A program made the position numbers and the translations under genes. A DNA stretch of 64,000 nt. Origin: Euglena gracilis (lineage: Eukaryota). How positions within the stretch are numbered: the first letter of the stretch is position 1; each line of letters begins with the position of its first letter. The stretch covers positions 6,335,425 through 6,399,424 of the forward strand of contig CP154954.1 of NCBI GenBank assembly GCA_039621445.1, given 5' to 3'. This document shows, piece after piece, positions 2,160 through 23,237 of the stretch. A model generated the notes under the pieces. The model was not told the origin of the DNA. It saw nothing but the letters and a program-made list of their open reading frames with translations, and made no database searches.

Positions 2160-2910
2160 TTATCTCCAAACACTTTTTTCCTCTTCTTTTTCCTCCCGGA
2201 TAAAATTTTCCATTTCATCCTTGTCTTCGGCTGACCCATGCTTACTTATATCCCTTAGGGCCTGTGAATCTGGGTATGCCCACCGACTAATAATGTCGGC
2301 TATGGTATTTTCTTTACCCGGGATATATCCCACCGTCAAATCATACTTGGAGAAAATTTGGTGCCATCTCGCCCTCCTCCCAACCGGACCACTGGGGGTG
2401 TCCAGGACTTCCCTTGTCCAAGACTCCAAACTTTGGTGGTCGGTTAAAACCAAAACGGGTTGCAATCCAATCCAACTCTCCCATTTTTGTAGTGCCAAAA
2501 TTATGGCATATGTCTCCAACTCCCTGGGGGTCCATTTTCTTTGCCCCTCGGTCAATTTTCGAGACATAAAAGCCACTGGCACAGTTTTTTTCTCAATCAC
2601 ATCTTGGGCTGTGGGCCCCCCTCCTTCATTTGCTCTAACGTTGCCCCCACGGCGTACCCACTGGCATCTACCCTTAGCACAAAGGGTTTATCTGGGTCTA
2701 CCCGTTGCAACATTAGGCCCGAACACAACCATTTTTTCAGCTCCTCAAAAGCTTTTAAATCCTCCCCATCAAATTCCACAGGTTTTCGACTTCCTTTCTT
2801 TCCCACCTCCCTAGGGACTTTCAATTTGTCTTGCAGCCGGGCAGCTACTTCCGCATACATGTGAACGTATGCATTGTAATAATTTGTGAATCCCAAAAAG
2901 GCTCTCAAAG
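2160..2910 (-). pseudogene. RT connection region and RNase H
   Basis: RAFLGFTNYY, FVLRVDASGYAVGATL, PVAFMSRKL, RELETYAI, VLTDHQSL, YIPGKENTIADIISR. Confidence 0.95.
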
Positions 2911-3680
2911 CCGTAATTGTTTTTGGAACCTCCCACTATTCGATCGCTCGTAGCTTACCCGGTGCTGGCCTCCTAGTCCCATTTCCTAAAATCTGTCCAC
3001 AAAATTAAACCCCCTCCACAAAAAGTTTGGCTTTGAATTCATCAGCCACCAAAAGTTCTGTTTTGAGCACTTCCAACACTCTCCTCAAATCTTTTTCATG
3101 TGCCCCCACTAGATCCTCCCCTTCCCCGACCGTTGTCCACACCAGTATGTCGTCTATGTCCCCTGTGGCGATATCCCTTACTGGTGTCAAACGGTCATCG
3201 ATCATTTGCTGAAATTGTTGGGGGGCATTTGTCAAACCCATTACGTTCACCCTCCACTGAAAAATCCCTTTGGGGGTGAAACAACACGTTATGGGTCGAC
3301 TTTCTGGGTGTGAAGGTTGTTGGTGAAAAGCTTGATTTGAATCAATGATCGAAAACATTTGGTTTGCACCATGTTTGACAAAAATGTCTTCAGTTTTGGG
3401 TAAGTGGTAGTTGCATCGCCTTGTTTGGCTGTTTGGGCCCCTGAGGTCCACCACCCCCCTCCAAGGAGAATCGTTGGATTTTTTTGGAACTGGAAAAGTC
3501 TGGGAGAGCCATTCAGAATTTTTGGCTGTGGCTGGCTCAATGTATTTTTTGTCAAGCCAGTCTTGGGTGATTTTTTCAAGTGCCTCTTTCCTCTCACCAT
3601 ACATGAAAAAAGGCTTCTGTCTGGTTGGCTTTGCCCCCTCCTTCAAAGGTATGTATGCATAACCATATTGTCCTCTTTCG
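2911..3680 (-). pseudogene. Reverse transcriptase (Ty3/Gypsy)
   Basis: FPVPKK..WRGVVDLRGPNSQT, QAFHQ, FQWRVNVMGLTNAPQQFQ; catalytic motif reads GDIDDIL where YIDD is expected. Confidence 0.95.
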
Positions 3681-4079
3681 GGGGGGGTCTGGAAATGGCG
3701 ATGACTGAAATACTGTCCCCCGGTAATCTTCCAAAACTTGTTCCCTCAACTTGACTACCCGTTCCTCCTCTTTTTTGTCCTCCCCCTCCCTTGCAATTAT
3801 CATTCGGTTGACAACTTGCACTGGGGGGTCACTTCCTTCCAAATTTGTGGCAACCTCCCCCAAGTCCTCGTCACTCAAAAATTGCAAGTCCTGGTCCAAC
3901 CCTTCCAATGGCAAACAAAGACCAAGTTTTTGCAACCCAAACGAAGACCCGTCCGCCACAGTCACATTGTCCACTGAAACATTTGTGTCATCCCTGAAAT
4001 TTTGCGGACCCCTCCGTCCTTCAACACCCCGCAAAAAAATCAGGTCGGGGCTGTCTTTCACCAATGCCTTGTGGTGTGG

Positions 4080-4420
4080 AAAAATTCCCAGTTTTGCCTC
4101 CGCCAACCATGGATAAGAAAGAATGGCATCAACTTTGATGTTTGCCACATAAAATTCAAACTCATATTCCACAAACTCAATTTCCCTTTCCTCATTCGAA
4201 TTTTGTTGAAGGATCATTTTCACCTTAGCACATCTGCTCCCCCCCGCCAAAGTTTGCCCATTGGCTGTTTCAAACCTTAACGGGTCCTTAGCAGGATACA
4301 TTAGGTGGTCCCCTATCAACCCTTGTCGAATGAGGTTTGCCTCAGCCTCCGTGTCAATCAAAATTCTGGCCGTTTTTTCCTCCCCATTTGCCAACCGTAT
4401 CTGTGTTTTTAACAGCAGTT
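4080..4420 (-). pseudogene. Retropepsin aspartic protease
   Basis: ILIDTEAEANLI (DTG-type active site, here DTE), ETANG flap and DAILSYPWL within ORF 3594..4769. Confidence 0.88.
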
Positions 4421-4539
4421 GTCTGTCCTCCCCAAGTTTCTTTGCTCCTCCCCGAGTGTTTGTCCCTCTCAACATTCTTTTTTTCAGCCGCACCAATTTT
4501 TTCTTTCCTGGGGCTGCCCCCCCCTGGGAGGGTTGCCTT

Positions 4540-4900
4540 CTATCAATCAACAAGGCCCACACCCCCCAACGGGTACCCCTCAAAATCCACCCATCAGCCT
4601 CAAACAACTTTGTCCCCTTGGGAAAATAAATCTTTTTGACAGCAATAGCCACCAGATTTCTCACCCACCTCCTATTCCAGTCTGGGCAAATACAAATTGC
4701 CCGACAATTGAATTTTTGCAATTTTTCAGCCACCTCAGGCCACAAAGTCCAGGGGGGGTTCATCCACAACGTTTCCTCCGCCCCCCATTCCTTTTTCGTG
4801 GCATCATCATCCCCCCCATAAAACTTTTCACACCTGGCATTTTGGCTGGTTGCAAAACAATCCCGTTACGCCTTAACCCGAAATTCATTCTCAATTTCCT
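4540..4900 (-). pseudogene. Dam-like (phage/DIRS-type) N6-adenine DNA methyltransferase domain within the Gypsy polyprotein
   Basis: In-frame translation *RDCFATSQNARCEKFYGGDDDATKKEWGAEETLWMNPPWTLWPEVAEKLQKFNCRAICICPDWNRRW: D.FA...NA.C..F motif, catalytic NPPW and P.W motif; continuous with the protease ORF. Confidence 0.85.
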
Positions 4901-5799: not shown

Positions 5800-8700
5800 C
5801 TAGCAACGGTTTCCTTTCCCCCTTCCTTTGCCTTTGCCTTTTCCACCATCTTGGCCCTTTCCCCTAGACCAGTCATTTCCATTGTTTCCTTTCCCCCAAG
5901 AATTGTTTCCTTTGCCCTTTCCTTTGCCTTTGCCTTTGCCACCACCAAACTGTGAATCAAAATTCTGTTGATTTGAGTGCCACCACTGATTTCCCTGAAA
6001 ATTGGCATTGGCGTTGGAATTCCTCCCAGAATCGTTTCTCCATCCACCCCCATTGCCAAATTGAGATTGCTGGGGGGGTGAATATGACTGTGATCGAACC
6101 ACTGGCACTGGATTTTGCACTTGGGGGTTCGCGTTTGCATCGGTCGCCGGAGCTGCCACCTGTGAATCTGATTTTTCAACGGACGGTTTTACCACCGTTT
6201 CGCCCCCCTTTGCTGACCGTGCTGGGGAGGGTGTCCTGGACCCCTTGGCCCGATCTGCCTTTTCAGTCCTGGCCCTCCGGTTTCCGGACCCATTTGGCTC
6301 TCCGGAACTGTGTAACATGTCTTGATTATCCCTGGATGACAATTTTCGCTCAACAAAACGGAAAATTTCTTCAGCTCCCATTTTTGACTGTTCCTACACA
6401 ATTTTGATTCTTTTATCCGTGCCTGTGATTGGTTTCACACTGACCTCTTTCAGGTTGTCGCAAATCGTAGTATAGGGCAAAAAGACTTCGAAGTCCAGCG
6501 GTGAAACTTTCGAAACCTTGCAGGGCTTTTCCACAGTGACACGTTCCACAGCACAAATAATGTTTTCCTCCGTTGCTGGCACTCCAGGGTACATTTTGAC
6601 TTTCGGTCCACACGTTGATTTCCTTTCCTCCTCATCGGCGACCCAATGCAAAATGAAATTTGGAAGTTTTCCTTTGACCAGTCTTTCTGCCTCATCGTCA
6701 GTGGCGCTTTTCACCTGTCTCCAGGCCATTTTGAAATTTATGACAAAGTCTCGCCATCCCGTACAGTAATTTTCCCTTGGTTCACAAGGTGGACATCATT
6801 CCATTTTTTTCTGGCACAGTCGGACTGAGTTCCAGCATATTTCCCGTCAATCCTGTCAAATTCCTCGTCGAAAGATGTTTTTCGGTTCAATTCCATTCGG
6901 GATTGCAATTCCTTTTTATTTGTGTCGTCCAGCGTCATTGCAAAAAGCCGAAGTTTGAGTGAATCAGACACATGTCCATTTTGCAAAATAACCAACGTCC
7001 TGACATATTGATCCCAATCTCGCACAAAGGACGACCAGTCTTTTGGCTGTCCAGAAAAATTTGGAGCTACCAGGTTTTTCATCAATTGATGCGTTGCCAC
7101 TGCATTTGATGAAACCAGCCCTGCGCCTGACATGTGTCGCATGTGACCCTGCTTCAGCGTATTCATAGTCTTCAATTTCAACCGGATTTTTCTCGATCAC
7201 AGGTAAATCATTGCAACCAAAAAGATCAAACTCCTCTATTTCTGGGTTTCCAGCTGATTTTTCTCTCGTTTCCTTTGTCAGATCCACTGTCGCAGATTTG
7301 GCAGATTCAGCTTGCTGATTTTTCATCACCAAAATCTCAGCCTGAAATAAATCCAGCTTTTGTTTCAATTTTTTGTGCTCCTGCTGTTCTTTTCGAAGTT
7401 CAACGCACTGCTGTTGCAGTAAAACTCCAACCTGCTGTTTCATCGAGTTTTCCATTTCGGCCCGAACTTTCTCAAACTGCCCCTCCCTTTCACTCAGCCT
7501 CAACCTTTCGTGCAACATTTCACTGATAATCACCTCCAAATTCTTTCTCGTTTGCAGCCCCAACTCCCTTTGCACCTCCAACCGAATTGTTTCCTCACTC
7601 TTGTTAATCAGGGCAGAGACTTTCTCAATGGGAAAATCTTTCCGACCCAGAAAATTCTCCAACCTCCCCAAACGATCATTCAGAGCTTTGCTCTCTCGCT
7701 CCAGGGACTGTGAAAATTCCTTCAATTTCTCAGCCTGTGCCTGAAAATTGGCACACTCAGTCTCCCCCAAACTTTTGCATTGCTGAAAAATGGTCCCAAA
7801 GCGTCCCTCCAGACCAGAGCTTAGCTCACCGACTGCAGATTTGACCTGATTAACAGCAATTTCCTGCTGTTTTTCCTTCTCCCCCACTTGTTGCACCGCC
7901 ACATGCATCTCCCCCACAGATTTTTCCAAAAACGACAGCTTCTGAGAAAAATCCCTCTCATTTTTTGTCAACCCCTCAACCTTGGTCTCAAAAAACGTGT
8001 TTACTCCACCCTCCACTTTCTTCACTTTTTCAGCAAACTGCCGTTCCATTTCCACACTCAACAAATGTCTTTGGCATTGGGCCAGATTTTGCACCATTTC
8101 ACCATTTTGCTGAAACTGCAAAAGCAAGTCGTTTATGGTTGCACTCAGTTCAGCCTGAATTTCACGTTTCACCATGGCAATGTGATCCGCCATTTGCTGA
8201 TCATGCATGCCCAATGCCTCATTGACCAGATTCAATGTCTGCCCCTGTGACATGGCCAATGCCTGATTTAACCTGTTTTCTGCCTCCCCCACCAGATTTT
8301 CAGCCGTTTTCTCAGGATTTTTTCCTTCCTGCACCAAAAGTCTGCAATGTAAACATTCAATTTTGCAACTGATTTCTTCACCCCAATTGTTCCAATCATC
8401 ATCGGATTGGCCATAGCCTGATTCCATTTCCACATCATGCTGATTTTCAGGGTTTTCGGACCCAGTTTCTGCAGAAAAACTGGTGTTTGGCTGTAAATTC
8501 TGTGGCTGGGTCTGTGGAAAATCTGGCTGAATTGGCTGGAAAATCTGGGCTGGGCCTGTGTTTGAAGACACTGTTAACGCTGGCTGAAAAACTTGCCCAT
8601 GCATCTGGGCTGGTCCCATGATTGCTGGAACAGACGGCTCAGCCGAAAACTGCTGGGCTGGCTGAAAAACCTGTGAAGTCATCTGGGATGGCCCCATGAT

Positions 8701-10060
8701 TGCTGGGACAGATGACTCCGCCGAAAACTGCTGGGCTGGCTGAAAAACCTGTGAAGTTATCTGGGCTGGCCCCATGATTGCTGGGACAGATGACTCAGTC
8801 GAAAACTGCTGGGCTGGCTGAAAAACCTGTGAAGTCATCTGGGCTGGCCCCATGATTGCTGGGACAGATGACTCAGTCGAAAACTGCTGGGCTGGCTGAA
8901 AAACCTGTGAAGTCATCTGGGCTGGGACAGATATCTCAGCCAAAAACGGCTGGGCTGGCTGACAAACTTGCAGCTGGGCTGCAGCTGGCTGTGCTGACTG
9001 CGATTCTGAACTCTGTGTTAACAGCAATCGTTCTGGCTGGGCTGTTAAACACAAAACGTTTTGTTCTGGCCCTGGGCTGCTGTCTCGTGACGACACAGAA
9101 ATTTGCTGAAAACCTGAAAAATTTACTGGCCACATGCCAGCAGCTTTCATTCTTCGCATAACCATTTCCTGAATTATTTCGTTTTCAGCCTGTTTTTCTT
9201 CCTCAATTTCGCTTTCGTAAGCTGGGGGGTCTGATTCGTCGTCACTGCCATGCAGTGGAACCAGCTGTAAATTTTCTGGCTCTGCCAGCGTGATGGGCCT
9301 TATGCATGTAATTAACCCCCTCTCCGAATCAGAATCAGATTCTGATTCCTGTGTCGTTTCTGAAAATCTGAAGCCGATAAAGTTTCTGCAGCCTGAGAAT
9401 TGTTTTCTGCCACAGATTCCATCATGATTTGCAATGATGCCACAGGTTCTGAAAACTGGGCTGCAGAAAATTCAGTTTCCTTTTCGTTCTGAAAATAGAT
9501 TTCTGCCACAGATCTCAAAAAATTTGGCCGGGAAACGAGCAGATGTCTGCGGATTCTTCTGAAAATTCACAGACCACAGGGTTGATGAAACTGTCCTCGT
9601 GCACCATTCTGCTGGCACAGCCACCAGAACAAATCTCTGTGACCGTGTCGACCGTCTCTGGAAATTTTTCACTGACTGGGTCAGTGAAAGAACCTTTGCT
9701 TGCGATGTCAGCCGAATCTGAAAACTTTGCACTGATTCTGCTGGCTGAGCCAGTGGAACAAACCTCTGCCACGATGTTCACCGAATCTGAAAAATCCTCA
9801 ATGATTCTGCTGGCAGAGCCAGCAGAACAAACCTCTGCGACCATGTTCGCCGGCCCCACCCCCTGTGCGCCGCCGGTCGCCCCCGCGACCGGCGAGTCCC
9901 GGTGGGCCGAGCGCCCGGGGGGTCCTCGCCGTCGTGGAAAACCACCAACAGCCGGGGGGTGGGTGTTTCCGGGGTGGGGCCTGCGCTTTCTCCGAGGGTT
10001 GGTGGGCTCAAGCCAACCCCCGTTTGTTTCACTCAGGTATTTTCCCAACCCCTGCCGGTG
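5800..10060 (-). pseudogene. Large Gag-like ORF1, fragmented: repeat-rich N-terminus, coiled coil, capsid-like region, GK-rich basic tail
   Basis: The 733-aa ORF 6964..9165 is Q/E-rich and coiled-coil-like; APNFSGQPKDWSSFVRDWDQY is Gag capsid-like; GKGKGKGKG tail at ~5810-5950; lies directly upstream of the pol domains. Confidence 0.75.
8570..8960 (-). repeat. 78-bp coding tandem repeat (26 aa, ~4.5 copies) in Gag-like ORF
   Basis: AQMTSQVFQPAQQFSTESSVPAIMGP repeated; ccatgattgctgg recurs at 78-bp spacing. Confidence 0.9.
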
Positions 10061-11779
10061 GGTAGGATCGTTTTTTTAATGTTTTCTGAAAATTTGGTGA
10101 ACACCGAAAAATCTGCCATTTGCAATGAAATAGAACTTTTCTCTCTGAAATCTCACTTTTTTCTCTTTCTCTCTCTCACACTCTCTTGCACACCTTGAAG
10201 GAAAAACCAACCCACTGAATTCTGAAATGAATTCCAACCCACTGGAGAAGCAATCACACTGTTGGAAATCTGTGAGAGTGACTGAATGTGATAAAAAAAA
10301 ACAACCTGGGGCAAGGAAGAGGGGTATAGGGAATAGAAGCGGCGGTGAGGGTGGCGGTGTTGCAGGGTCTCCTTCTTGATTTCAATACCAAATTGACTTC
10401 AATAACTCCACCAACAATGTAATGACCAACAATGTAACTGTCAATTCCAATTCAACAATGTGATTGCTCAAATCCAATTCAATATATTTCCTCTTTGCCA
10501 AATAATGGGGAAAACCCCTCAAGTTTCTGTGAAAAATGACAAATTTGAAGGCGCTTAGAAATTTGACCCGCTTCCAATTTAAGTCGCGGGTTTCTCTAAC
10601 TGATTGGCTGTTACCCGCGACTTTGTAATTTGCGCTTTCTGGCAATTTTTGGCTGCCTGCGAAAGCCGGCGGCCGACACGTTCCAACGCAAACCAATTTG
10701 ACAAAGTAAATCCCCAATTGCTGGTTGCCACCTTACTGCTCGACGCTCTGTATCGGCATCCTGTTGCAACAATAATTTGCGTTGCTTTGTGAACCTCCTT
10801 TTCCAGCTCTCATCAGTCTGGTGCATTATTTGGTCTCTCGAAAGGTTACCTTTGTTCACTGTTCTGCGTGCAAGGAGCTCCAGTGTATGGTGCAGTGCTC
10901 TGGCATTATTTCTAAACCCCCTTTTTTGACGATTTGAGAGGAGATTGGTGGACTTCCTGGTTCTCCCTCTCTTGAAAGCAACGCCTTCGGCACCATTGTG
11001 ATGGTTAACTTGATAGGGTATCCCGCGCAGTTCGAAAAAGAGTTTCAGACCCTCTTGAGGCTCCATCCTCAAAATCATCGGTTGGACTTTTCAAAGAAAA
11101 GGAACGGGAACCTGAAGAAAAACCAACTTTTTTTTTAAAAGCATGAAAACATTCCCTCCGGGGTTTGGGGACCTCAGTTTTGGCTGAAAAAGAAAGCCAA
11201 CCCGGCTTTATTTGGGCCTTCTGGGACCGCCCAGCCCATCAAGTCAACCCGACCATCCCCCGGACCTGGGCCGGGCAGGCTTGTTTAAGATGAGGGATGT
11301 CCATGTCACTCAAACAGCGCCAATTCCTGTAAAATTTTCAACGCTCTGCTCTGGGCAAATTTCGAGTTGGAACAACAATGTCTTCCCTATCCAATTTTTT
11401 TCGCGCCATGGTCAGTCGTTTCTCGATCAGTGGGCCGTCAGTTTTGTGGCCCCTTTTCGATGGGAAATGTTTTGCTTGTAAAAAAGACTGGCGCTTCGGA
11501 AAAGCTTATGAAAGGCAAAGGGGCGCTACACCCAAGGACAAAAAATGCGCTTGGTTATTTTTTGAACCTAACGCCCCGTACTCCCTCGAGGTTAACCGAC
11601 AAGGAGGAAGGGACACCGAGGGCAAAGCACAACGACCTTGTGAGGCCATGCCTTGTTCGCCGGCGGTGTTGTTTGGATCGTTCGTGGTGCGTTGGGTTAG
11701 GAGTCCCCGCTGAGTGTCGCCTCGCCCGAGTTGGATGACGATGCTGCTCCGACTTGGCGACGTGGCTTCTTGCCCCTTG

Positions 11780-12166
11780 AAAACCCCTCCCCCAAATAAT
11801 AAACCCCCCAAAAAATAACCCCCCCCCCCGAGGACCGACTTCGGCGGCCCAAAAAATACCCCCCCCCCCCTGTGTTAGGTGTGATGGCAAAGAAAAAAGA
11901 GTCAAAATTTGCAGGAAAGTTGCAAAAAAATCACGAAAATTGATCAAATTGGTGCACAGAATACGCCAAAAAAACCCCAATTTTCAAAAAAGCCCAAAAT
12001 TGCCAAAAAAGTGAGCATTGGAGCCCGTGGAGGGTTTTTTGGGTTGATTTATGACTTCGAAATTTTTGCTTAAATAATAAACCCCCCCCCAAATAATAAA
12101 CCTCCTCCTGGACCCCGACTTCGGGTGTCCAAATAATAAACCGGGGGGGTTTATTATTTGGGTTTA
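11780..12166. mobile_element. MITE-like element (~390 bp), copy 1
   Basis: Inverted ends (aaacccc..aaataataa / ttattatttgggttt), repeated aaataataaacccc motifs, collinear with 19142-19562. Confidence 0.7.
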
Positions 12167-13244
12167 GGCTGCATGGGGGAGTACATCAAACACAACTCAA
12201 CTTTCCCCACCACGTGGGCGAGGCCCCCAGGGCAAGCAACCTAGAAAAGCCTTTCCGATCAACCTCCCATGGCAATCTGCCAGAGTAGAACCTTGAACTT
12301 CAATTCTCCAAATCCCTTCCACACTTCCCAACACATGCAATCCAAGACCTTGCCAGATACAACTACTACAAAGTGATGCACTGTTTGCCGTACCAATGTG
12401 AAAAAGCCAAGTAGAATTTTCAATGGGCGAAATATCTTTTCTAGCCATGCCTAATTTCAGATTGCAATCACAGATTCTGGAATACTTTGATGTCTGCTCT
12501 CACCCTCCTTCTCAGAAAAATTGTCCACAATTTACCCAGCATTCGGAGCGACATAGGACAGACCTTTATCCCACGTTGAACATCTTGATGAGCCACTTGG
12601 AACACGACAAGAAGAAGTTGAAGACGAAGTAAAACGGATGAAAGTAACCACCTTCTGCCGCAGAACGCCAGCACATGGCAGCACCAATTGCCAAACGAAA
12701 CGGCGAGAGATTTTTCGTAAACAGTAGGTGAACTCACAACCCAGCGATTATGCAAACCTACTGTAATGTCAACAACAGCAAATGACCACCAAAACCACAA
12801 ATAACCACCATCTGGTTCTCCATTACGTGCCTCAAGGCTCATCTCGATGCTCCACCTGGAAGTTCTCGAAGGCCGTGCCTCACGGCTCAGCACCAGGACC
12901 TGTAATTACAATTTCAAAGATGTCATCAATGACAATGTACAATGATGAACGGTTTGCCTTGAGAGAGTAAGAGACACCCCGGGGTCCGCACTTTGCTCTA
13001 GTGAGGCCGGATTGTTCACTGGGGGAACAGGGCATTTCCAAGAGCACCCTGGGCCCCAAGTCGTTGATAATGGCCTGTAAAAGCATCCACCCCCCTCCAC
13101 TGGCCAATTTCACAAACCTCTTGGGCAGAAATCCCCAATTTTTTGAGTAAACCAACTCCTGCCGCTCTGGTGGAGTGAGTGTGTGCGGCAGACGGGAGAT
13201 CCTACGGGGGTAGGTCGCCGGCGCGTAGTACCAAGCCGAGTATC

Positions 13245-13317
13245 GCTCGAGTAGCTTATTCGGTAAGGCACTGGGCTCACACGCGGGAGGTCGTGGGTTC
13301 GAGACCCAGGTCCCGCC
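13245..13317 (+). promoter_or_regulatory. tRNA-Val(CAC)-derived segment with Pol III A and B boxes in the 5' LTR
   Basis: TAGCTTATTCGGTAAGGC (D arm/A box), CTCACAC loop, AGGTC variable loop, GGTTCGAGACC (B box); acceptor and anticodon stems are mismatched. Confidence 0.8.
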
Positions 13318-13931
13318 GTGTGAGTCCTGATCGATCCCGTACGGGCAGAGGGCATACCGCGGGGATCGATCGGCACGTGAGGCTGCGCACGTGGACGAAT
13401 GTTGATCGGTCGGATTACCACGGACGTGGCACCTCGCTAGCGGACGAGCCACTGCAAGTAGTATGAGCTGCCCCGTGGCCGTCCAACAGCGGGTGGCTAA
13501 ACCTACATACATGGTAGCAGGGGAACTCGTCTAATGCAACACGAACCGGGACATCAGAGCCTGACCCCACGGCGCCCGGAAGGCGGAGGCGGACGCGCCG
13601 AGTCTAGGGCGACTGAAACTCCTACACCGTTCCAAAGCCTCAAGCCGATGCTAAGGAGGACGCTCCAAGGCGGCAGAGCCCGTGGAAGTCGACAACACGT
13701 AAACTTCCGGCAACAGTAAACCCGAGCTGCAGCGGTCGGCAGCCTGGTGACGCAGTACTCGTGAGAGGCACTCAGCCGACTAGGGCCGTGTGAGGCATAA
13801 CCCGAGATGCAGGGGCCACGGCCATAGTGACGCAGTGAGCTAGTGTAGTAAGGCTCTTGCGAGGGGAGTGTGCGGCAGACGGAAGATCCTACGGGGGTAG
13901 GTCGCCGGCGCGTAGTACCAAGCCGAGTATC

Positions 13932-14005
13932 GCTCGAGTAGCTTATTCGGTAAAGGCACTGGGATCACACGCGGGAGGTCGTGGGTTCGAGATCCAGGTC
14001 CCGCC
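13932..14005 (+). promoter_or_regulatory. tRNA-derived segment in the 3' LTR
   Basis: Second copy TAGCTTATTCGGTAAAGGC...ATCACAC...GGTTCGAGATCC. Confidence 0.75.
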
Positions 14006-15429
14006 GTGTGAGTCCTGATCGATCCCGTACGAGCAGAGGGCATACCGCGGGGATCAATCGGCGCGTGAGGCTGGGCACGTGGACGAACGTTGATCGGTAG
14101 GATTACCACGGGCGTGACCCCTCGCTAGCGGACGACCCACGGCAAGTAGTATGAGCTGCCCCGTGGCCGTCCAACAGCGGTTTGCTAAACCTACATACAG
14201 TGGGCCCCCCACACCTGGGGGGTTACCCCATGTTTGGACAAAAATTATTTTGTGATAGAAGCAATGGTGTCTGCACTTTTGGCTCTGGAGGAGGGTTTCA
14301 ATGAAATCAGGAGGGGCCCCCAGATCTCACGAATAAACGTGTGGCCACCACATAACACATCATTAAAATGAAAGGGGCTTATTTGTGGGCACTGGGTATG
14401 GACACAACCTTGTGGATTTTTTGGCCTTTGTGCTTAATTTTGATGAACGGTGCCCTACTCAACACGCTTGTGGTTCGTTTGACCTGTGCCAGGTATGAAG
14501 ATCTGTAGAAACAGAGTATTTGTGAGCAAAAAATAAGTTGTGTTCGCAATGTACAAATATCATTGGGCATAGGCGCCTTTACCAGCCCCAGGAGGATTGG
14601 GAGCGGAGCCCAAAATGCCCCATACTTCTCCAGATTTTTGTTCCAAAGCATCTTGTAAGGGGTCAACAGCGTGTAGAATCTCAGCCCACCAAACCCATCA
14701 AAAGCATAGCGCTGTATGTATTACGAGCTTGTTGTGTACCAGGCAGCCGTAAGGCCATGATACTGTGTATGTAGGTATAAGCCTGCGGTCAGATATAGTT
14801 CTGAGCCCCATACACAGTACTATGCTAGGTGGTATTCCTAAAGATGGCCAACGGCCTGGATTAGGAATACCTAGCTCCATAGAGCAAAAACTTGTTCTGG
14901 TTCTCCTCTCCACAGGTGGTATTATATTCTATTTTTTTTTATTCTTGACTTCACTTGATTTCAAGTTTGATTTGTTTTCAAAAATCCGGAAAGTACAGCC
15001 AAGTCACTTGGCATTCTTTGTTGCAGCCCATAGGGATCCTTCGCCTGCTTTGTGCTCTGCCTCTTTATTAAGGAAAAGGGATTTTCATTTTTTTATAATT
15101 TTTTCTCCGTTACTCCAAATTTTACCTTTTTGTGCACCCAAGGGCTAAAACAAGGAAAGGTTGGACGTACACTTGGTAGCAGTTTAGGTTTTCGATCCTT
15201 TTGACCACAAACGGTCGTGTGGCGCACCGCCTATAGGCGACCACAGGCACCACAAGCCGTTTTTGGCCAAAGCCGTACACACGGACACGTCCTCTGACAG
15301 TTCGCAGTATACGCTGCTTCAAACCTCAGAGTTCGGGTCTCTGCTTATTTTTTATACAATCCCCTCTTCTTACACTTGTTTCTGCAATTTTCGTTTCAAT
15401 CTACACTTGGTTTTTGTGTTTTTCCTGCA

Positions 15430-18400
15430 TAATGCAGAGCACAACACCAACAGCCATTGACTACGCTGCATTGATTGGTTCACTTCGAGCACTTGAACCT
15501 GCGGCATAATTGACCAGCTCTGATGAGCATTCTCAACCCCATAGGGGTACTCAAGGGTTCAGGTAATCCTCCTTCCCTTCGTGAGTCAGCCCAATGCTCA
15601 ACAGGCACACTCCCTTTTGTTAGAAAGCCGAGCGGCTGATAGTTATTCCCCCCGGCTAGATCTTGCAATGGTGCCGATAGGCACATTTGACTCTGAGGCG
15701 GATGCGCCACGACAACTTTTTTTCGAGGGTGGGTTAGAAACACCATGTCTTTTCCAGCCCCTCCCTGCGCTTCCCACCACAAGTCCGATAGGACAATTGC
15801 CAGCACCACTCGATACGGGTTCCTTTCCTGCATTGCCATGGCATCCGGAGATGCGTTTGACGGTTCCCGCTTATGCAAGCCCCGCACAATCCATGAGCAG
15901 TGATGTGGAAGAGTCGGAAAATATTTCTTCTCATCCCATTACGGCGATTCAGCGCATAGTCGCAAATATCCCAGTTGACCACCCGCTTATGCGGCAAATC
16001 TCTCATGTCCACTGTAGCGGATTGCGCTATGACGCTTAACAAGGTTTAGGATTTTGATGAAAACAACCAAAAGGTTGTAGAAAACGAGCTGGGCTACCTC
16101 TGGAGTTATGTGTGTGACGTTGGTGAATATTGCCAAACGAATTTTCAATCCACCAATGTGGACGTAGCAACTTTGCGTCAAGGTTTGGAGACACACTTGC
16201 AGGCACATTTGTCACAACACTTTCAAAAAGTGAGTGAAGCCGTGTGTGAAACACAATCCCGCAATGACGTGCTTTTCTCCAACATGCAACATAGTTTGCA
16301 AGCTTTATCCCATCAATTCAAGCCAATTCCGGCAATTTTTTCACAGTTGCAGCAAAAGTTGCATGAACCCCGATAAAAAATCCTGATTTGCGACAATTTA
16401 TCACATTGTAGCAATTATTCGCACTTGCAACGGCGTTCCAGGAAGTGCAACAGCGCATTTTCCAGTTGAGCAGTGATTCCGTGAATTTTGCCATTTTTAT
16501 GCCCAAGGAACAAAAGGTTTGCCTCCCGCACGTATGTGCACCAATTGGAGGAGAGACTTTCTTGATTGTTGCAGAAATCTTGCCCGCAATACGGAAGTAG
16601 CTGGTAGTATTCCGGATGTTACCGGCATTCAAACCGTGATAGCCGATTTGCACGAACACATGCAAGAATTGAACACAAAACTGCTTCAGGTGCAATCACC
16701 AACCCAAGGCACATTACCACCGCCAACACCCACACCCACATCCATACCCACACACTTGGAGCAGTTATGCGCTGAAATGCTTGCGGAAAATCATCAAATC
16801 ATGCAAGGATTTTGTGATAGTCTCATGAACACCGGGAAAACGGTGAAGCAGGGTGTCACAAAACGGCAAAATGACCTTACCGCGCTATCCGCGCAAGTTT
16901 TAGTGTTGAAAGAACAGCCAATGGCTGAAAAAGTCAAAGATCCGCATTCGGACCAACCCACCAAGACATCTCCACAATTGGAGGCCATTTCCAGTGCGAT
17001 TCGCACTTTAGCGGTAAGATTACAGGAATTGGACACTGGATTTTGTGCAATTTCGTAAGATTTCCAGTCGATTTTCGACAAAATCCGCTTTTGGATGAGT
17101 TACCCTCATACCGTAGGCAGATAAAGCGTTTGCAGGAGGACGTGGGCCCGATAACCGACAATTGGCAGGTTGTTGACCATTTGGAGCAAAGTGTGCATGA
17201 GTTTGCAAAAAAAAATTCACCAAATTCAAGCACAACTGCGTTCCATCCACCACAACCCGCAATCGGCTATGATTCGCACACTTGCCGCATCTTCCAGCTC
17301 AAAAAGCGCTATTCGCGCACCAGTCCTCGAGTCCACAGGCACACCGCGTTCCCACTCATACGGTGGTTCCCACCTTAGCATTACCCAATGGACGAGCTTT
17401 CTGATGATGAGTCAGGTTTTCAAGCGAAAACCAGGCCCACCCCCCTCTTAAATCAAGAGATTCGGGAACACGAACTAATTCGCGGTATCAGCCGCACCCC
17501 CACACGAGGTATTGGTCATACCTCCCAAATTCGCTTAGTAGCACCAATGGTGCAACCTGGCATGTGACACCTCACCCCCACATGCACAACCGCATCACCA
17601 TTCGTGCATTCGCGATTCCCCAAACCTGCACGATACTGATGGTACACTGAGTGGTATGTTCCATGCGCACTCGCAATCGAACAAAACCCTTGGTGCAACC
17701 ACCGGAGTACTTGCACATGGTGCGATTTTGCACCCGCGCCCACCCCCCATGAATACCACCGAATGGCCACGGGTTTCTCAGAAAGATTTCAAAGGCACCA
17801 TTGCCATCGCGAACAAGGGGAAGCCCCAATGGGACGATAACAACCCGGAGGTAATCAAGATTGAGTTTATTGATTCCCTCCCAAGGGAAGAAAAAGAACG
17901 CGCCAGACAATTTGTCATTCGCGGACGCATTTCTTTTGAGGAATTAGTTGAGCAATATTCTTCATCATGCTCAGATTGGTTCCCAGAATCAGTATGGAAA
18001 ACAAGTGGCGGCAAGTTGCCCCCCCCGGACCGCAAATGGAAGTCGATAGACTTGTGGTACTCCAAATGGCTCGGGTTGGCAGCCGAAGTTGATGAGTTAG
18101 GGGAAAAGCAAATAAAAGAACAATTTGATGCAGTATTGCTGCACTACATCCCCAAACACATCAAGGAAATTCACGGGGAGGAACTCGGGACACATTTTGA
18201 CTCTCGATGAGAGATGGAACTATGTTTCCAAACAAATGAAGTTATCACAACTTCTGGGACAGATTGAATCAGAATACCAACACTACCCCACCGCATGGAG
18301 TGATTCCAAAACACGCTATCCGCGCTCAAACACCAAATCCCTCACACGAGATTCCAAACTGTGCTATATTCACGCTCTTCTGATCAAGTTTCGGACAAAG

Positions 18401-18750
18401 TGTGCTTTTTGTGTAACCAATCAGTACATATGTCTCGCAAATGTCCGAACCCCCAAGCGCGAAAGCGCAGTAAGAACCCACGGGGATCCTTCTCTTCCTG
18501 GAGTTCGCGTACTTCGCGGTCTGCGTATTCGCAGCGGTCGGGATGCCGATCGGGTGACGGTAGGTCACGTTTACGTTCACCTCACCGCAGTAGCGGACGT
18601 GGTTTCACACCGCGAGGTCGGTCACCCCACCCCCCTACCCGCAATCGGGATGCGAATCGCGATTCTTCGTGATCTTGATCGCGAAGTGGATCATCCTCTT
18701 CGCGATCGACCGCGGTCGAGCGGATACCCGCTCCCCGCGTCGCCGTGATG
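15430..18750 (+). pseudogene. Gag-like region with CCHC zinc knuckle and RS-rich tail
   Basis: CFLCNQSVHMSRKC (CX2CX4HX4C) at ~18400-18445 followed by R/S-rich sequence; upstream coiled-coil-like fragments. Confidence 0.75.
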
Positions 18751-19141
18751 CCAAAAGGCAATCGCAATCGCGAAACCGTTGCTCCCTTCGTGGGTCTAAA
18801 GACCACCACTCATACAAGTGCCCCCGTTCCCGTTCTCCCCGCCCTATCCGGGGTTGTCGTGATTCCAATCGCGGTTCTGCCAATAGGCAGCGGGTTTGTA
18901 TCAAAATATCCTCCATCGAGGAAAAAAAACTGGAATCGGGCAGGGAGGGGGATGAGAGCAATAGAATGGCGGAAGACAGCAATAGAATTCGCGCGATACG
19001 CGCAATTTATTCTAGGAAAAGGCCGACTCCGATATGGAGTAGGGGAGCCCGAGATCTGAGGGCACGGACCTCTGGGCTGATGAACAGATGGAGGTAGGAA
19101 CTGATCACCCCTGCCCCCCCTGCCCATCGGTCTTTCTGGTC

Positions 19142-19562
19142 GGTAAACCCCCCCCCCAAATAATAAAACCTCCCCAAAAAATAACCCCCCCAAATAATAA
19201 ACCCCTCAAATAATAACCCCCCCCCTGAGGACCGAATTCGGCCGCCCAAATAATAAACCCCCCCTCCGGCAGGTGTGAATCCAAAGAAAAACAGAGTCAA
19301 AAATTAACAGAAATGTTGCCGAAAATCACAAAAATAGAAAAAATTGGTGCATAAAATGTGCCAAAAATCACCCAATTTTCAAAAAAGCCCAAAAATGTCA
19401 AAAAAGTGACCATTGGGGCCTTGGAGGGGTTTTCGGGCCAATTTTTGCCTTCAAATTTTTTGCCCAAATAATAACCCCCCCCAAAAATAAACCCCCCTGG
19501 ACCCCGAATTCGGGTTTCTAAAAAATAGACCGGGGGGGTATATTATTTGGGGGGGGTTTACC
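19142..19562. mobile_element. MITE-like element (~420 bp), copy 2, inserted between gag and protease
   Basis: TIRs ggtaaacccc(n)aaataata / tattatttggg(n)tttacc; internal similarity to 11780-12166. Confidence 0.75.
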
Positions 19563-19695
19563 CGGAAAATTTTCGCGTCCCCCACTCCCCGCGCCTGATT
19601 TTTGCTTGGAATGATGAGCAAAGTAAGCAAAGGGTCATGAACCAGTTGGCGCGACAACAATTTTACACCAGACCCTTCGCTTTGCGTACCCCCCC

Positions 19696-20040
19696 ATGGA
19701 ACTTTTGGTCCTAGCGAAAATCAAAACCCAAAATGTTTGTGCACGGGCCAAAATTTTAGTCGAAACAGGGTGTCGAATCCCCCTTCTTTTCCGCAAAGGA
19801 CTTTTACCCACCCCCGTTTTGGCTCATGCCAAGAATCTCACCAAAATTATGGCCGCTGACAACAGCCCCATGTGCGGTGGTGACTTGGGATGCATTTTGG
19901 ACATAGTCCTACCCATTATCCTGAAGCACCACACACACTCCCCACAATTACAAAATTTTCTGGGTACTTGGGCATTCGAGGCGAATATCGCCGGGTCAAA
20001 TGTCATACTGGTTTTTCCATTCCTACGACAACCCCGATTG
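19696..20040 (+). pseudogene. Aspartic protease remnant of element 2
   Basis: AKILVETGCRIPLLF (degenerate DTG), AADNSPM flap-like segment, NVILVFPFL. Confidence 0.7.
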
Positions 20041-20406
20041 GTGGTGGGATTGTCCTTCGCACGTTTTGCGCACTTCCCTCCGCACACACACCGAACCCCC
20101 AAACTTGTTCACTGTGACGTCACCCAGGACGTCCCCCCGCATTTCCATAACGTTTCCCACAACGGAAAACACCGTTTCCTACCCTAGGGGTAAATAGAAA
20201 GCTGCCCCCCTACCCACAGCACTTTTACCGCTCGTTTCCCATGCGGTAGGGAAAGCTAGTAGCTTAACCCCGCACGTTTCGCTGGGTTCCGACGCGAAAG
20301 CCCAAATGCCTGAAGTAATTACGGTGTCGAGTAGCCGCCCAGCTGCACACTTTTTTCGTTTTAAACAAGGTGTGTCGACTGCAGACTCCCCTGTACACCC
20401 CCCAAC

Positions 20407-21185
20407 GGGGTACCAAGTCGGACCTGCACCTCCAGCCTCAGTGGCACGGTGGTACCCCGGGGGCATGCCATGGAGCCGAGGCATGCCGCCAACGCAGGCC
20501 GCACCCCTCCTAAACCCACACGCTGCTCCCCGCGGCGAGTGGGCATGGAGGAGGGTGGGGTGGGCCGACCGCCCCGAAGGGATCCTAAGCGGCTTCAGTG
20601 CCGTCCGGGCAACCCCCGGGGGGGCCTGGAGGGGCGGCCGGTCAGGCAGGTGAAGCCCATACAGCCCGGAGGGTGCCTGCAGCTGGTCAGCTCCTGCCGG
20701 AGGACCGGGGTCTCGAGGGGCGCTGGGGGCCGCTGACAGGGAGCTGCAGCCGAGGAGGGGTGCCCAAGGGGCCATGCCGCGCCCCCCTCGGTTGCCCGGG
20801 TGCCCAGGCGGCCACGAACAACCCGGCCCCAGCGAGCCCCCAGTGCCCTGCAGAGACCACCGACCCCTGGCCAGGGCTGCACAGTCCCGGACACCTCACG
20901 GCAGCGGGGTGGAGCCTACCCACCTAAAGTCACCCAAGCAAGGTGGACGAGTGTCCTGGAACATGGCCCCGGAAGGGCCTGCCAGACACCCACACGCCTT
21001 CGGGCGTGTGGTCACTTGGGCGCCCCTGCTACCCATGCAGGGAGGGCAGTAGAGCCGAGTCCGAAAGGACGCTGCCCGACGTGTCAGGCCAATTGGTCCC
21101 GGAAGGGTGACGCCGCAATGTCACTTGACCGGGGGTTGCCAGGCCACAGACGACACGGAGAGAGCGGGGCTCTCTCACCCACCGA
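20407..21185. mobile_element. 779-bp GC-rich insertion flanked by a 22-bp direct repeat
   Basis: actcccctgtacaccccccaac occurs at 20385-20406 and 21186-21207; composition shifts sharply between them. Confidence 0.75.
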
Positions 21186-21869
21186 ACTCCCCTGTACACC
21201 CCCCAACAGCTACCCCAACCGACACCAACTTGTGCACTGACACCCACACAAACGCGCACCACAAGCACCAACCTTCCTACCAATGCGCTCACTGTCGGAG
21301 AATTTCCGCTTACCATGATGTTGATTGTGGATGTCTTGTTGAATGTTCCAAACTAATCCGATTTGATCCCGCACCCGGGAAATTTCATCCCGTACCCGAA
21401 CCGTTACACTTGGTAGTGGTACAGTCGGTACGGATTTAATATATAACCAAACGGTACATAGCCAGGGTACAATGGGTGATACACCCAGCCGTACACGTGG
21501 TAGTTTATCACATTTCACAACTATACCTAGCAGTCCTTCGCAATTCGCAGATGTGAATCGAGCACTACAGTGCAAAGGCATAGCCTCTCTTTTCGGTTTT
21601 GCGCATAGCGCCCCCGTGCGCTTATGGCGCTCTCCACACTCCCTGCGCATATCGCGCTGCCCGCACATAGCGCGAATTCTGCGCATATCGCGCATTCCGC
21701 TCTATCGCGTATCACCGAGGACTGGGTATATGCCCAACCCACCCATGCCCCCCCCTTGGTCGAGTCCTATGGACACGTGTGTGGATAATTCACAATTCTG
21801 TTGTTCTGTTTTACAGTATGTTCCCCCCCTTCAGGATGTGGATCAGATCTCCAAATACACCAAGGACAC

Positions 21870-22300
21870 CTGGAATGCTTTTAGGTTTGGTCAACATCGA
21901 ATTTTGAAACGTTGGTTTTCAAAAAATGCCGATATGGCGGATTCCTTTGATTTGACCTTAGAAATTGATGCATTCTCTTCCAACGTGCGTTCGCGACTAC
22001 CGCGACATTCGTCGCAACATTCTAACGCTTTTGATAAGTTTTCGGCAGACACAATCCTATGGATGCACCCCCATGAAACGTATCCCGCTTGTTGTAGATA
22101 ATATTTTTTGGGATCAAGCACGAGGACACATTACTTGTTCCTGTGAATCACGAAGCGGAATGGTTTCAAAATTTGACTTATGACACCTTTTATTGGTGGG
22201 ACCTGCCAAACGATGTTCCTCTATTCGAGGATTTCCGTGGAGCAGTGTTACCACCTTTTCAAGAAATCATTTTTCGCGTTTGTTTCTTTAATGCTTTTAA
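21870..22300 (+). pseudogene. Dam-like N6-adenine methyltransferase remnant between PR and RT of element 2
   Basis: LEIDAFSSNVRSRLPRH...NAF...ILWMHP/PMKRIPLVVDNIFWDQARG/TLLVPVNHEAEWFQNL across two frameshifts. Confidence 0.7.
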
Positions 22301-22559
22301 TGTTTCCCAAAATACGTTCCCGAATGTTATTGTGTTGGATCATACCGAGCATGTGGGAGCCGATACGTCTTTTCTCCATACTGCCGATAGGCATCACCGT
22401 TAAGCCCCACCTATGGTTGATATGACCCATAAACAGGTTCCCGCTGTCATTGAAAGTGCAGGACATCACCCCAGTTGAGCAGAATTTTGTACGCGCATCA
22501 GTCGCGAATTTTCTGGTGTTTTGGAGAATCCTGTTTACGCTTGCGATATAGCTCCCGTG

Positions 22560-23237
22560 TTTGTAAGATTGAGCTTAAACAGGCGCAAAGTCAATGCACC
22601 GGAAATTTTTCCGTTGTTCGGAGAAAGAGAGATGCTCTCAATGAAATGATTGAAAAGCTCATAGAGCAGAAGTGGATCATCCCTTACAAAAGTGAATGGA
22701 CCTCCCAAGCTTTTGTGGTTCCTAAGCCCCCAGACCCATCAGGTCAGAAAAAGTGGAGGTTGGTACTGGATTATCGGTACTTAAACTCACAAACTAAGGA
22801 TGACCCATTCCCACTACCTCTCATAGAGGACCTCATCACAAAACAAGCGGATAACTGCTTGTCGTCAATTTTCGACCTGGAGGATGGTTTCCACCAAATG
22901 CATCTGGATCTCGATTCGCAAGCCTATACGGCTTTTGTACCATCCAGAGGTGTTTACCAATGGACGGTTTTACCAATGGGTGTTAAGAATGGACCAGCAA
23001 TGTTTCAGCGCATGATCCAATGGGTCTGACGGGCTTTACCGTTTGCGCTGGTATACATTGATGATGTTTTGGGTGGTACCCTCCCCTCCATCAGCGAATA
23101 CACACGAGAATATTCTCGATATTCATTATCGTGATGTTCGCGCGGTATTAGCCGCATTTCTCAAGCATAGACTTTTTGTTAAAGGTGTTTAAATGCACTT
23201 GTTTCGCCAAACGATAAAGTTTTGTGGTCACATTCTT
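22560..23237 (+). pseudogene. Reverse transcriptase of element 2 (truncated)
   Basis: AFVVPKP..KWRLVLDYRYLNSQT, DLEDGFHQM, YQWTVLPMGVKNGPAMFQR, VYIDDV at ~23051, IKFCGHIL. Confidence 0.95.

Follow-up and report, generated by a model that had tools for sequence, protein, structure and literature searches.

A probable Helenus-type miniature LTR retrotransposon with a tRNA-derived module in its LTRs

Background

The stretch of DNA analysed here (the window, 64 kb in length) contains a short unit, bounded by long terminal repeats (LTRs), in which each LTR carries a segment resembling a decayed tRNA. The locus raises the question of what kind of mobile element this is and whether the tRNA-like segment has, or once had, a role in its transcription by RNA polymerase III (Pol III). 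Elements with tRNA-bearing LTRs were described by Kojima in 2024 under the name Helenus, and the term "TRIMp3" unites them with Cassandra and Ajax (PMC10886601). The Helenus group is held to be polyphyletic, and the use of Pol III is unvalidated for the published Helenus as well (PMC10886601). The Introduction of the same paper describes miniature LTR retrotransposons (TRIMs) as "shorter than 1000 bp", yet Helenus reaches 1,263 bp (PMC10886601). As a class, TRIMp3 has been in the literature for only two years, and Cassandra is its one member with demonstrated use of Pol III.

The best explanation for the locus, to which we assign a probability of roughly 0.8, is a non-autonomous Helenus-type LTR retrotransposon of the TRIMp3 class with a tRNA-derived module in its LTRs; that the element is a Helenus-type TRIM we regard as highly probable.

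Structure of the element and its insertion site

Window positions 13180-14199 are occupied by a complete, non-coding miniature LTR retrotransposon of about 1 kb (1,020 bp), with a GC content of 62% and LTR ends of the TG..CA type (TGTG...ACA), which entered another repeat in one piece and duplicated 5 bp of the target. The features of the element and of its surroundings are as follows.

13044..13179, strand not assigned: left part of the host repeat, high-copy, summed contig depth 54,464-84,510 in DNA run X1
13175..13179, + strand: left target-site duplication (TSD) GTGAG (originally GTGGG), from the sequence and empty-site contigs
13180..13511, + strand: 5' LTR, 332 bp, TGTGTGCGG...CCTACATACA, 94.88% identity to the 3' LTR
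13512..13868, + strand: internal region, non-coding, 357 bp including the primer-binding site and the polypurine tract
13512..13523, + strand: primer-binding site (PBS) TGGTAGCAGGGG, directly following the LTR-terminal ...CATACA and of the initiator-Met type (3' end)
13719..13836, + strand: internal duplication of ~80 nt (13719-13756 versus 13799-13836, 74-79% identical)
13861..13868, + strand: polypurine tract (PPT) GAGGGGAG, adjoining the 3' LTR; in other copies TGTGTGCGG follows an identical tract
13869..14199, + strand: 3' LTR, 331 bp, with one TG lost at its start and one A gained at 13952
14200..14204, + strand: right TSD GTGGG, from the sequence and contigs
14205..14740, strand not assigned: right-hand part of the host repeat, with approximate limits, X1 contig depth 1,740-75,410, loose ends at 14733 and 14740

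The alignment of 13181-13511 with 13868-14199 extends over 332 nt at an identity of 94.88%, the differences being 17 substitutions and a single indel; because its two LTRs differ by 5%, this copy is not young. In other copies of the family the 3' LTR opens with TGTGTGCGG immediately after GAGGGGAG (contig joint 13865->13177), which places the start of the LTR at 13180; by comparison with those copies, one TG is missing from the window's own 3' LTR. The differences between the LTRs number 4 in the 5' half and 13 in the other half (p=0.049), a marginal figure that is uninterpretable from a single insertion.

No Pfam family was found in six ORFs overlapping the element (five searched at E<=0.1, plus one more), and Tandem Repeats Finder returned no rows for the element, so that the duplication at 13719-13836 is unscored. 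A similarity comparison disclosed no further copy of the element within the 64-kb window, nor any similarity of the internal region (13512-13868) to other parts of it. The motif formed by the PPT and the start of the LTR recurs with one mismatch at 19929-19943 on the reverse strand, a site that was set aside as it has no LTR-like continuation.

Evidence for the insertion comes from other copies of the flanking repeat, which in contigs of the public DNA run X1 carry the uninterrupted target site (...CTCTGGTGGAGTGGGCCCCCC... and ...GGAGTGGGCC...), and which thereby prove the insertion and fix its boundaries. The empty-site joint, 13173->14199, is seen in 9 contigs of X1 and in 4 reads of run X24, 4 bases at the junction being ambiguous, and loose contig ends lie at 13177 and 14199. 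The two copies of the TSD, GTGAG and GTGGG, match at 4 of 5 positions; since the empty site reads GTGGG, this was the original duplication and the left copy was later mutated at 13178. In the bin that precedes the left part of the host repeat (13044) the X1 depth is 97. An initial annotation of this DNA had proposed a complete miniature LTR element here, and the LTR pair, the PBS, the PPT, the 5-bp TSD (with its 4 of 5 matching positions), the non-coding interior and the empty site all bear that proposal out.

Abundance and forms of the family

The family to which the element belongs is highly repeated and exists in at least two LTR length forms. A total of 3,473 contig pieces of X1 map to a 2.2-kb stretch around the element, across which the summed X1 depth ranges from 5,066 to 89,183 for the element itself, and the top bins (50,092 and 89,183) contain the tRNA module. 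The short-LTR form, known from 3 joints and 15 loose-end contigs, has ~16 nt in place of 13373-13506 and keeps the module. Among the contig joints listed, one (13237->13370) removes the module whole and one further joint (13302->13352) removes its 3' end. The LTR motifs had no matches in the metagenome and viral collections that were searched. The initial annotation had named two ways in which the module might prove foreign to the family, namely that most copies lack it, or that it is an incidental SINE insertion with its own TSD and tail. What is found instead is a module that lies in the deepest bins and is removed whole by a single joint among those listed, and neither an A-rich or simple-repeat tail nor a duplication of its own is seen at the module in the sequence.

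The tRNA-derived segment of the LTRs

Each LTR contains a decayed copy of a tRNA with a box A and a box B spaced as in a tRNA, the promoter-like motifs and the segments themselves being located as follows.

13245..13317, + strand: tRNA-derived segment of the 5' LTR, Rfam RF00005, 18.5 bits, model positions 1-71 (full length)
13252..13263, + strand: box A-like motif TAGCTTATTCGG, which fits the Helenus pattern TRGCY...YGG (PMC10886601, section 3.5)
13296..13306, + strand: box B-like motif GGTTCGAGACC, which carries GGTTC, conserved in Helenus (PMC10886601)
13938..14005, + strand: tRNA-derived segment of the 3' LTR, Rfam RF00005, 13.8 bits

In the 5' LTR both boxes are intact and stand at a tRNA-like spacing, and the anticodon loop reads CUCACAC, in which the anticodon CAC points to Val as the source isotype; mismatches occur in both the acceptor and the anticodon stem, and the fold of minimum energy does not form a cloverleaf. 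In the 3' LTR, box B reads GGTTCGAGATC and its conserved C is changed (C->T at 13993). Of the earlier description, a tRNA-shaped segment in each LTR with decayed stems and intact boxes, the segment and its decayed stems stand, with Rfam matches in both LTRs and the CUCACAC loop, but box B of the 3' LTR departs from it.

Proposed mode of transcription and the evidence from RNA

On the Helenus-type reading, TFIIIC would bind boxes A and B of the 5' LTR and Pol III would initiate near 13245, whereby U3 would amount to ~65 nt and the remainder of the LTR, from ~13245, would serve as the repeated R/U5. Because the sense strand is T-poor and without TTTT, Pol III would be expected to run on through the PBS, the interior, the PPT and the 3' LTR, and to terminate, in the manner of a SINE, at a T-run in the flanking DNA, the first of which lies here at 14248. 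A helper reverse transcriptase would then start from initiator-Met tRNA, whose 3' end would pair with TGGTAGCAG, strand transfer would take place through the LTR repeat, plus-strand synthesis would be primed at GAGGGGAG, and the cDNA would be integrated, at a 5-bp stagger, by a helper integrase; one candidate for the helper is a Ty3/Gypsy-like family similar to the "element 2" considered below. The missing TTTT was rejected as evidence for Pol III in its own right, being absent in 1,821 of 2,000 shuffles too, as a matter of base composition. We would give the module about an even chance of being a working Pol III promoter.

The family appears to be transcribed, since run X15, which is RNA-like (a status guessed by a tool), covers it. 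A 614-nt contig of X15 (depth 34.2) extends over U5, the PBS, the interior and the PPT and reaches into the 3' LTR beyond the tRNA module, and X15 behaves like RNA because the flanks, which are equally repeated, have depth 0 in it. The RNA reads come from a sample of 5-6% of each raw run, and these sampled reads display neither a pile-up of read starts near 13245 nor any other place where molecules begin or end. Run X24 covers the interior at 0.7-2.0x in a single mate orientation; LTR coverage reaches at most 4x, on both strands, in X24 and at most 3x in X21, a poly(A)-type cDNA run whose depth over the interior is 0. The Pol III promoter that the initial annotation had placed in the LTR is thus matched by the box A and box B sequences, from which a function may be supposed, but not by read starts near 13245.

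The alternative that survives best holds that this is an ordinary TRIM driven by Pol II, whose ancestral LTR captured a tRNA pseudogene or the head of a SINE that persists as a passenger fossil without a role in transcription. This we consider possible but rather unlikely. It would account for the decayed stems and the fold unlike that of a tRNA, for read starts that do not accumulate near 13245 and reads that fall on both strands of the LTR, for the changed box B in the 3' LTR of the window copy, and for the divergence of the LTRs inside the module (3/73 positions), which is as great as it is overall (18/333); insertion of a SINE into an LTR has, moreover, been proposed as the origin of Helenus (PMC10886601). 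A mere passenger is harder to reconcile with a 5' LTR that keeps both boxes at tRNA-like spacing, with a module that both length forms of the LTR retain and that falls in the bins of greatest contig depth, with LTRs in which there is no TATAA or AATAAA (neither of these, nor TTTT, occurs anywhere in the element), and with the depth of 0 over the interior in the poly(A)-type run X21, where X15 and X24 have some.

It is far less probable, and in our view very improbable, that the resemblance to a tRNA arose by chance in a GC-rich LTR and that the element is a plain TRIM. Both matches (18.5 and 13.8 bits) do lie under the Rfam gathering score for tRNA, 29 bits, and a search of window positions 1-48000 at gathering scores returned no family; ARAGORN at default settings reported no tRNA, and its relaxed setting (80%) was set aside as non-discriminating, with 30 "tRNAs" in 47 kb, many of them spurious, across the window. 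Against chance stands a match in the 5' LTR that spans the whole model (1-71), with the D arm, the T arm and boxes A and B in register. When 12800-14600 was scanned with Rfam at E<=10, tRNA came out on top, and the two weaker matches, both at chance level, fell in the flanks; the scan of the 3' LTR (13900-14040) at that cut-off gave tRNA and nothing else. The E value of 1.3, obtained across 4,227 families, corresponds to ~3e-4 for a single family named beforehand, and two 12-kb control stretches (24 kb) gave no tRNA match at E<=10, under filters that are stricter for such longer inputs.

That this is a unique copy produced by internal deletion from an autonomous LTR retrotransposon, and part of no dedicated miniature family, might be suspected from LTRs that are only 95% identical and from the want of a second copy in the window, but can hardly be credited when the short interior is itself highly repeated, with a summed X1 depth of 12,261-22,895 over 13562-13857 and contigs of both X1 and X15 that cover it with 5-10% differences.

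Relationship to known elements

The element is a new family of the already published Helenus design, as far as a comparison with the published set by motifs only can tell, none of five element motifs (10-12 nt) being found in DataS1.fa of PMC10886601. Like Helenus, it has two LTRs, a PBS, a PPT and a TSD and no coding capacity; its LTRs contain tRNA-derived sequence with a box A of the form TRGCY..YGG, a box B with GGTTC and no functional tRNA fold; its 1,020 bp fall within the published range of 311-1,263 bp; and its TSD of 5 bp is that of fungal and plant Helenus, whereas the animal Helenus listed make TSDs of 4 bp (PMC10886601). Its PBS starts TGGTAGCA, as do those of Helenus-5_PSt-I and Helenus-3_PTrit-I, and that of Helenus-5_PGr-I starts TGGTAGCG (PMC10886601, DataS1); we infer that these three are the families to which that paper assigns tRNA-iMet's 3' end. 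The differences are that the LTR, at 332 bp, exceeds the longest listed (323 bp), that the 62% GC of the element contrasts with the AT-rich rust families compared, and that the rust LTRs compared have a T-run soon after the tRNA part where the element has none (PMC10886601 and its DataS1).

The host DNA in the window includes an IFT52 gene with multi-kb introns, an exon of which matches solved IFT52 chains; a protein-atlas search bearing on the host lineage brought up no match. The fungi that harbor Helenus with 5-bp TSDs are without flagella, and the IFT52-bearing host is therefore not among them. We offer only tentatively, and with considerable doubt, the further proposal that this is a very abundant and independently born Helenus in a flagellated host outside the listed fungal, animal and lycophyte lineages, or else an animal Helenus, the first one to have a TSD of 5 bp, and that it would combine a Ty3/Gypsy-like helper with initiator-Met priming and termination at flanking T-runs.

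The initial annotation had seen in the element a convergent, tRNA-based counterpart of Cassandra; the analogy in structure holds, but the design had already been published as Helenus (PMC10886601). Cassandra is likewise a TRIM whose LTRs each have an internal Pol III promoter that originates from the gene of a small RNA (PMC10886601), but its module stems from 5S rRNA, has its own terminator and yields experimentally shown Pol III transcripts, whereas the module of the element is, by its sequence, tRNA-derived and without a terminator. Rfam at E<=10 yielded nothing for 5S rRNA in 12800-14600, and membership in Cassandra was rejected on this account. Ajax, a nemertean TRIM, shares the TRIMp3 design and the 5-bp TSD, but carries a fragment of the 5S promoter, measures 421-434 bp and has a tRNA-Leu PBS (PMC10886601).

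What the element has in common with SINE2 is a tRNA head, decayed but still furnished with A and B boxes, together with a probable reliance on flanking T-runs for termination. SINEs are without LTRs, PBS and PPT and are copied, via their tail, by non-LTR (target-primed) machinery. The element differs in its LTR-type ends, its 5-bp TSD and a module that no A-rich or simple-repeat tail follows, and it was not placed among SINE2. Retrozymes, non-autonomous LTR elements of plants that carry hammerhead ribozymes, are non-coding, ~1 kb in length and provided with a Met-type PBS, and the element resembles them in these respects and in having LTRs unlike those of autonomous elements; no hammerhead ribozyme turned up when 12800-14600 was scanned with Rfam at E<=10, and membership was rejected for this reason.

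The element extends the range of Helenus, with its LTRs of 332 bp, the absence of a terminator of its own, its 5-bp duplication, its initiator-Met-type PBS and a host with an IFT gene, and it leaves unchanged the picture of how Helenus-type elements work. The family is a substrate for asking whether a tRNA-derived module drives a Pol III genomic RNA of ~1 kb for LTR-type retrotransposition. If the proposed reading is true, transcripts of the family are already present in public RNA runs of the host, and this could become the first Helenus with a direct test of Pol III use. Copies of the tRNA-like LTR are also numerous enough in the host genome to inflate counts of tRNA pseudogenes.

A candidate relative of the helper

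Two features downstream of the element bear on the source of the helper functions.

14765..15182, + strand: putative 5' LTR of "element 2", TGTGTATGTAGG...GGACGTACA, followed by CT and then by the PBS-like 9-mer TGGTAGCAG
22454..23026, + strand: Ty3/Gypsy-type reverse-transcriptase fragment, possibly of element 2, Pfam RVT_1, E=1.6e-17

The proposal in the initial annotation that the family of element 2 is a candidate helper has the shared 9-mer, and short similarities of the LTR termini besides, in its favor, but it has to be read beside an expectation of 0.21 chance occurrences of the 9-mer per window and a putative element 2 LTR that has no second copy within the window. The 9-mer of the TRIM PBS recurs at 15174-15182 and occurs twice in the window in all, and 14755-14779, in inverted orientation, agrees at 20/25 positions with the end of the TRIM LTR plus its PBS. 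These similarities weakly suggest that element 2 may be a relative of the helper family. Among solved structures, the best relative of the reverse-transcriptase fragment is the Ty3 reverse transcriptase (4ol8, E=4.6e-24), and the fragment, which lies 7.3 kb downstream of the PBS of element 2, is possibly part of that element.

A tRNA-containing TRIM with the Helenus design

The miniature LTR element (TRIM) at 13180-14199 had been likened in the initial annotation to Cassandra, as a convergent design with tRNA-derived sequence in its LTRs; the structure was correctly described, and the design has already been published as Helenus (PMC10886601), to which the present element adds what we take, from motif search, LTR length and a missing T-run, to be a new family. 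Kojima 2024 (PMC10886601) places Helenus in Pucciniales, a few Agaricomycetes, six animal phyla and Selaginella, unites it with Cassandra and Ajax as TRIMp3, and gives lengths of 311-1,263 bp, a conserved box A (TRGCY..YGG) and box B (GGTTC), and the lack of a functional tRNA in most members. Fungal and plant Helenus have 5-bp target-site duplications and Copia-like PBS partners, animal Helenus 4-bp duplications and Gypsy-like partners, and their use of Pol III is described there as still to be validated. Among the matches listed, later literature naming Helenus or TRIMp3 only cites that paper in the passages concerned. The TRIM agrees with Helenus in all structural criteria, yet none of five 10-12-nt TRIM motifs is present in the sequence file of PMC10886601, its LTR of 332 bp exceeds the longest Helenus LTR listed (323 bp), and it has no T-run such as follows the tRNA part in the rust LTRs described there.

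The fungi with published 5-bp-duplication Helenus families are Dikarya, and the host of the TRIM lies outside those fungi, as its IFT52 gene indicates:

32439-42115 (about 32.4-42.1 kb), minus strand: IFT52 exons, by profile matches

The IFT52_central match at 41597-42115(-) has E=4.7e-13, with weaker matches at 33406-34062(-) and 32439-32885(-) and a 69-residue exon match to solved chain 8bd7_B; these exons, with their long introns, identify the host as a flagellated eukaryote.

Element structure and insertion site

13180-13511: 5' LTR, begins TGTGTGCGG, ends CCTACATACA
13252-13263: box A TAGCTTATTCGG, intact in the 5' LTR
13296-13306: box B GGTTCGAGACC, intact in the 5' LTR
13512-13523: PBS TGGTAGCAGGGG, adjoining the 5' LTR without spacer
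Between the LTRs: interior, 357 bp
13861-13868: polypurine tract GAGGGGAG, directly 5' of the 3' LTR
13869-14199: 3' LTR, ends CCTACATACA, as the 5' LTR does

By blastn, the direct repeats (13181-13511 and 13868-14199) are 94.88% identical over 332 nt, base-by-base alignment of the LTRs gives 17 substitutions and 1 indel, and no other sequence resembling the TRIM occurs within the 64-kb window. The interior holds an imperfect ~80-nt duplication (13719-13756 and 13799-13836), and none of 6 ORFs overlapping the TRIM matches a Pfam family. CpG observed/expected is 1.11 in the TRIM versus 0.68 in the whole window.

Reads from two raw RNA runs, together with contigs from a further two, older runs, were compared with 12600-14800 at 88% likeness, and 3,473 contig pieces of the DNA run X1 were matched to this stretch. 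The flanks of the TRIM (13044-13179 and 14200-14800) are highly repeated, with a summed X1 depth of 1,740-114,908 versus 97 just left of this host repeat (12970-13043). In 9 X1 contigs and 4 reads of run X24, 13173 is joined straight to 14199 (4 bases ambiguous at the joint), and from loose ends at 13177 and 14199 the sequence passes into the flank on the other side. The host repeat thus also occurs in uninterrupted copies. Their empty site reads ...CTCTGGTGGAGTGGGCCCCCC..., as against the filled ...GGA GTGAG [TG...CA] GTGGG CCC..., and the target-site duplication is thus 5 bp, GTGGG, of which the left copy later mutated from G to A at 13178. In a 614-nt contig of run X15 and 2 X1 contigs, 13865 runs back to 13177, so that in other copies the 3' LTR starts TGTGTGCGG right after GAGGGGAG. 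This places the start of the LTR at 13180 and shows that one TG has been lost from the 3' LTR in the window. Together, the joints and these contigs show the coordinates first assigned, 13180-14199, to be exact.

Family copies

The TRIM family is highly repeated, with a summed X1 contig depth (which is not a copy number) of 5,066-89,183 across the element. The tRNA-like segment falls in the two deepest bins (50,092 and 89,183), and depth is lower in the interior (12,261-22,895), a profile compatible with solo LTRs or with further families sharing the segment. X1 contigs also reveal a shorter LTR form, in which about 12-16 nt stand in place of 13373-13506 and the tRNA-like part is kept: 3 joints link 13372/3/6 to 13506/7 through 12-16 nt of other sequence, and 15 contigs depart from the window sequence after 13374. 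Among the joints listed, beyond which lie 34 joints and 99 difference rows, the whole segment is deleted in 1 contig (13237 to 13370) and its 3' end in 1 further contig (13302 to 13352).

The tRNA-like segment

That each LTR holds a tRNA-shaped segment is borne out by Infernal, at scores below the 29-bit gathering score of RF00005 (tRNA): 18.5 bits for a full-length match (model 1-71) at 13245-13317, and 13.8 bits at 13938-14005, the sole match in a scan of 13900-14040. The E-value of the former, 1.3, covers all 4,227 Rfam families and corresponds to ~3e-4 for tRNA alone, named in advance. Two 12-kb control stretches, longer inputs to which stricter filters apply, gave no tRNA at E<=10, their 11 matches being to other families, and ARAGORN reports no tRNA in the whole window. 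In the alignment the D arm is intact, the T stem is 4/5 paired, the anticodon loop is CUCACAC, and the acceptor and anticodon stems are mismatched; the minimum-energy folds of the two segments form no cloverleaf (z = -1.83 and -0.36). The description of intact boxes on decayed stems thus holds for the 5' LTR, but box B of the 3' LTR has one C-to-T change; that segment also carries an additional A at 13952, past the box A stretch (position 21 of the segment alignment). A recent SINE insertion into the present copy is ruled out, the segment having neither an A-rich tail nor a flanking duplication of its own.

Transcription

It is proposed that boxes A and B would recruit Pol III, with initiation near 13245, and that the transcript would read across the PBS, interior, polypurine tract and 3' LTR as far as position 14248 in the flank, the site of the first TTTT; the part of the LTR 3' of the start could then act as the terminal repeat in strand transfer. 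Such a transcript could cross the whole TRIM because T makes up 16% of the sense strand, which lacks TTTT (AAAA, TATAA and AATAAA are absent as well), although the absence of TTTT is not itself evidence, since TTTT is likewise missing from 1,821 of 2,000 dinucleotide shuffles.

In X21 (a cDNA library, about 5% sampled) LTR depth is at most 2.8x and interior depth 0; in X24 (size-fractionated, about 6% sampled) the LTRs have 0.2-4x on both strands and the interior 0.7-2.0x in a single mate orientation. These thin RNA data contain no pile-up of read starts or ends over 12600-14800. X15, labelled RNA only by a tool's guess, behaves like RNA, as its contigs cover LTR and interior at depth 15-34 and the equally repeated flanks not at all. 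Its contigs suggest that family transcripts taking in the interior and 3' LTR exist.

A candidate helper

The PBS core shared with element 2, a candidate LTR element downstream, was found as annotated: the window has two occurrences of TGGTAGCAG, at 13512 and 15174 (0.21 expected; two reached in 4 of 100 shuffles).

About 14765-15171: putative element 2 LTR, upstream of 15174, begins TGTGTATGTAGG, ends GGACGTACA
22454-23026: Ty3/Gypsy-type RT fragment, 7.3 kb away

At its start, this putative LTR matches the end of the TRIM's LTR and the adjoining PBS at 20/25 positions in inverted orientation, and its end is similar to ...ACATACA; the stretch has no second copy within the window. The sole coding signals downstream are a weak zinc-knuckle match and the RT fragment, and blastn finds no similarity of the TRIM interior to element 2. 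Element 2 as the helper is thus a tentative lead. Ty3 is primed by initiator-Met tRNA and makes 5-bp duplications, and a Ty3/Gypsy-like helper would therefore be compatible.

Other repeats in the window

The window also holds Gypsy-type pol remnants, several tandem arrays and a 160-bp satellite. The satellite fills the final 16.7 kb (47300-64000) with at least 85 copies of about 160 bp; its GC content is about 62%, most copies are 96-100% identical, and units of 152, 158 or 161 bp occur occasionally. Another array, at 39008-41420 (10-11 copies of about 217 bp, 77-100% identical), is flanked by IFT52 exon matches and probably sits in an intron of that gene.

A Ty3/Gypsy-order pol remnant at 886-4865(-) comprises RT (3008-3745), RNase H (2163-2935) and integrase (886-1677); just upstream, at about 4746-4862, is a fragment of a Dam-like N6-adenine methyltransferase, a domain known from DIRS-type elements, and the two are probably nested elements. 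An open frame of 835 codons at 6967-9471(-), with no Pfam match, has internal repeats at 8579-8970 (81-85% identical, offsets about 78/156/234 bp). A repeat present in two copies (11789-12162 and 19187-19551; 82% identical, 376 nt), rich in C-runs and palindromic at its termini (AATAATAAACCCCCC...GGGGGGTTTATTATT), resembles a MITE-like foldback element; hairpin-type microRNA families match its second copy weakly on both strands (19473-19558).

X21 and X24 RNA reads lie hundreds deep over 12600-12969, which has no Pfam match. They disagree with the window sequence at fixed positions and stop short at 12798, 12856, 12918 and 12948; their source is an expressed paralogue at another location, and the copy in the window appears to be a fragment or pseudogene. 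An inverted copy at 25108-25216 joins the sequences of 11610-11718 and 12975-13008, which at those positions are separated by 1,256 bp; the interval from 11718 to 12975 may therefore hold another nested insertion.
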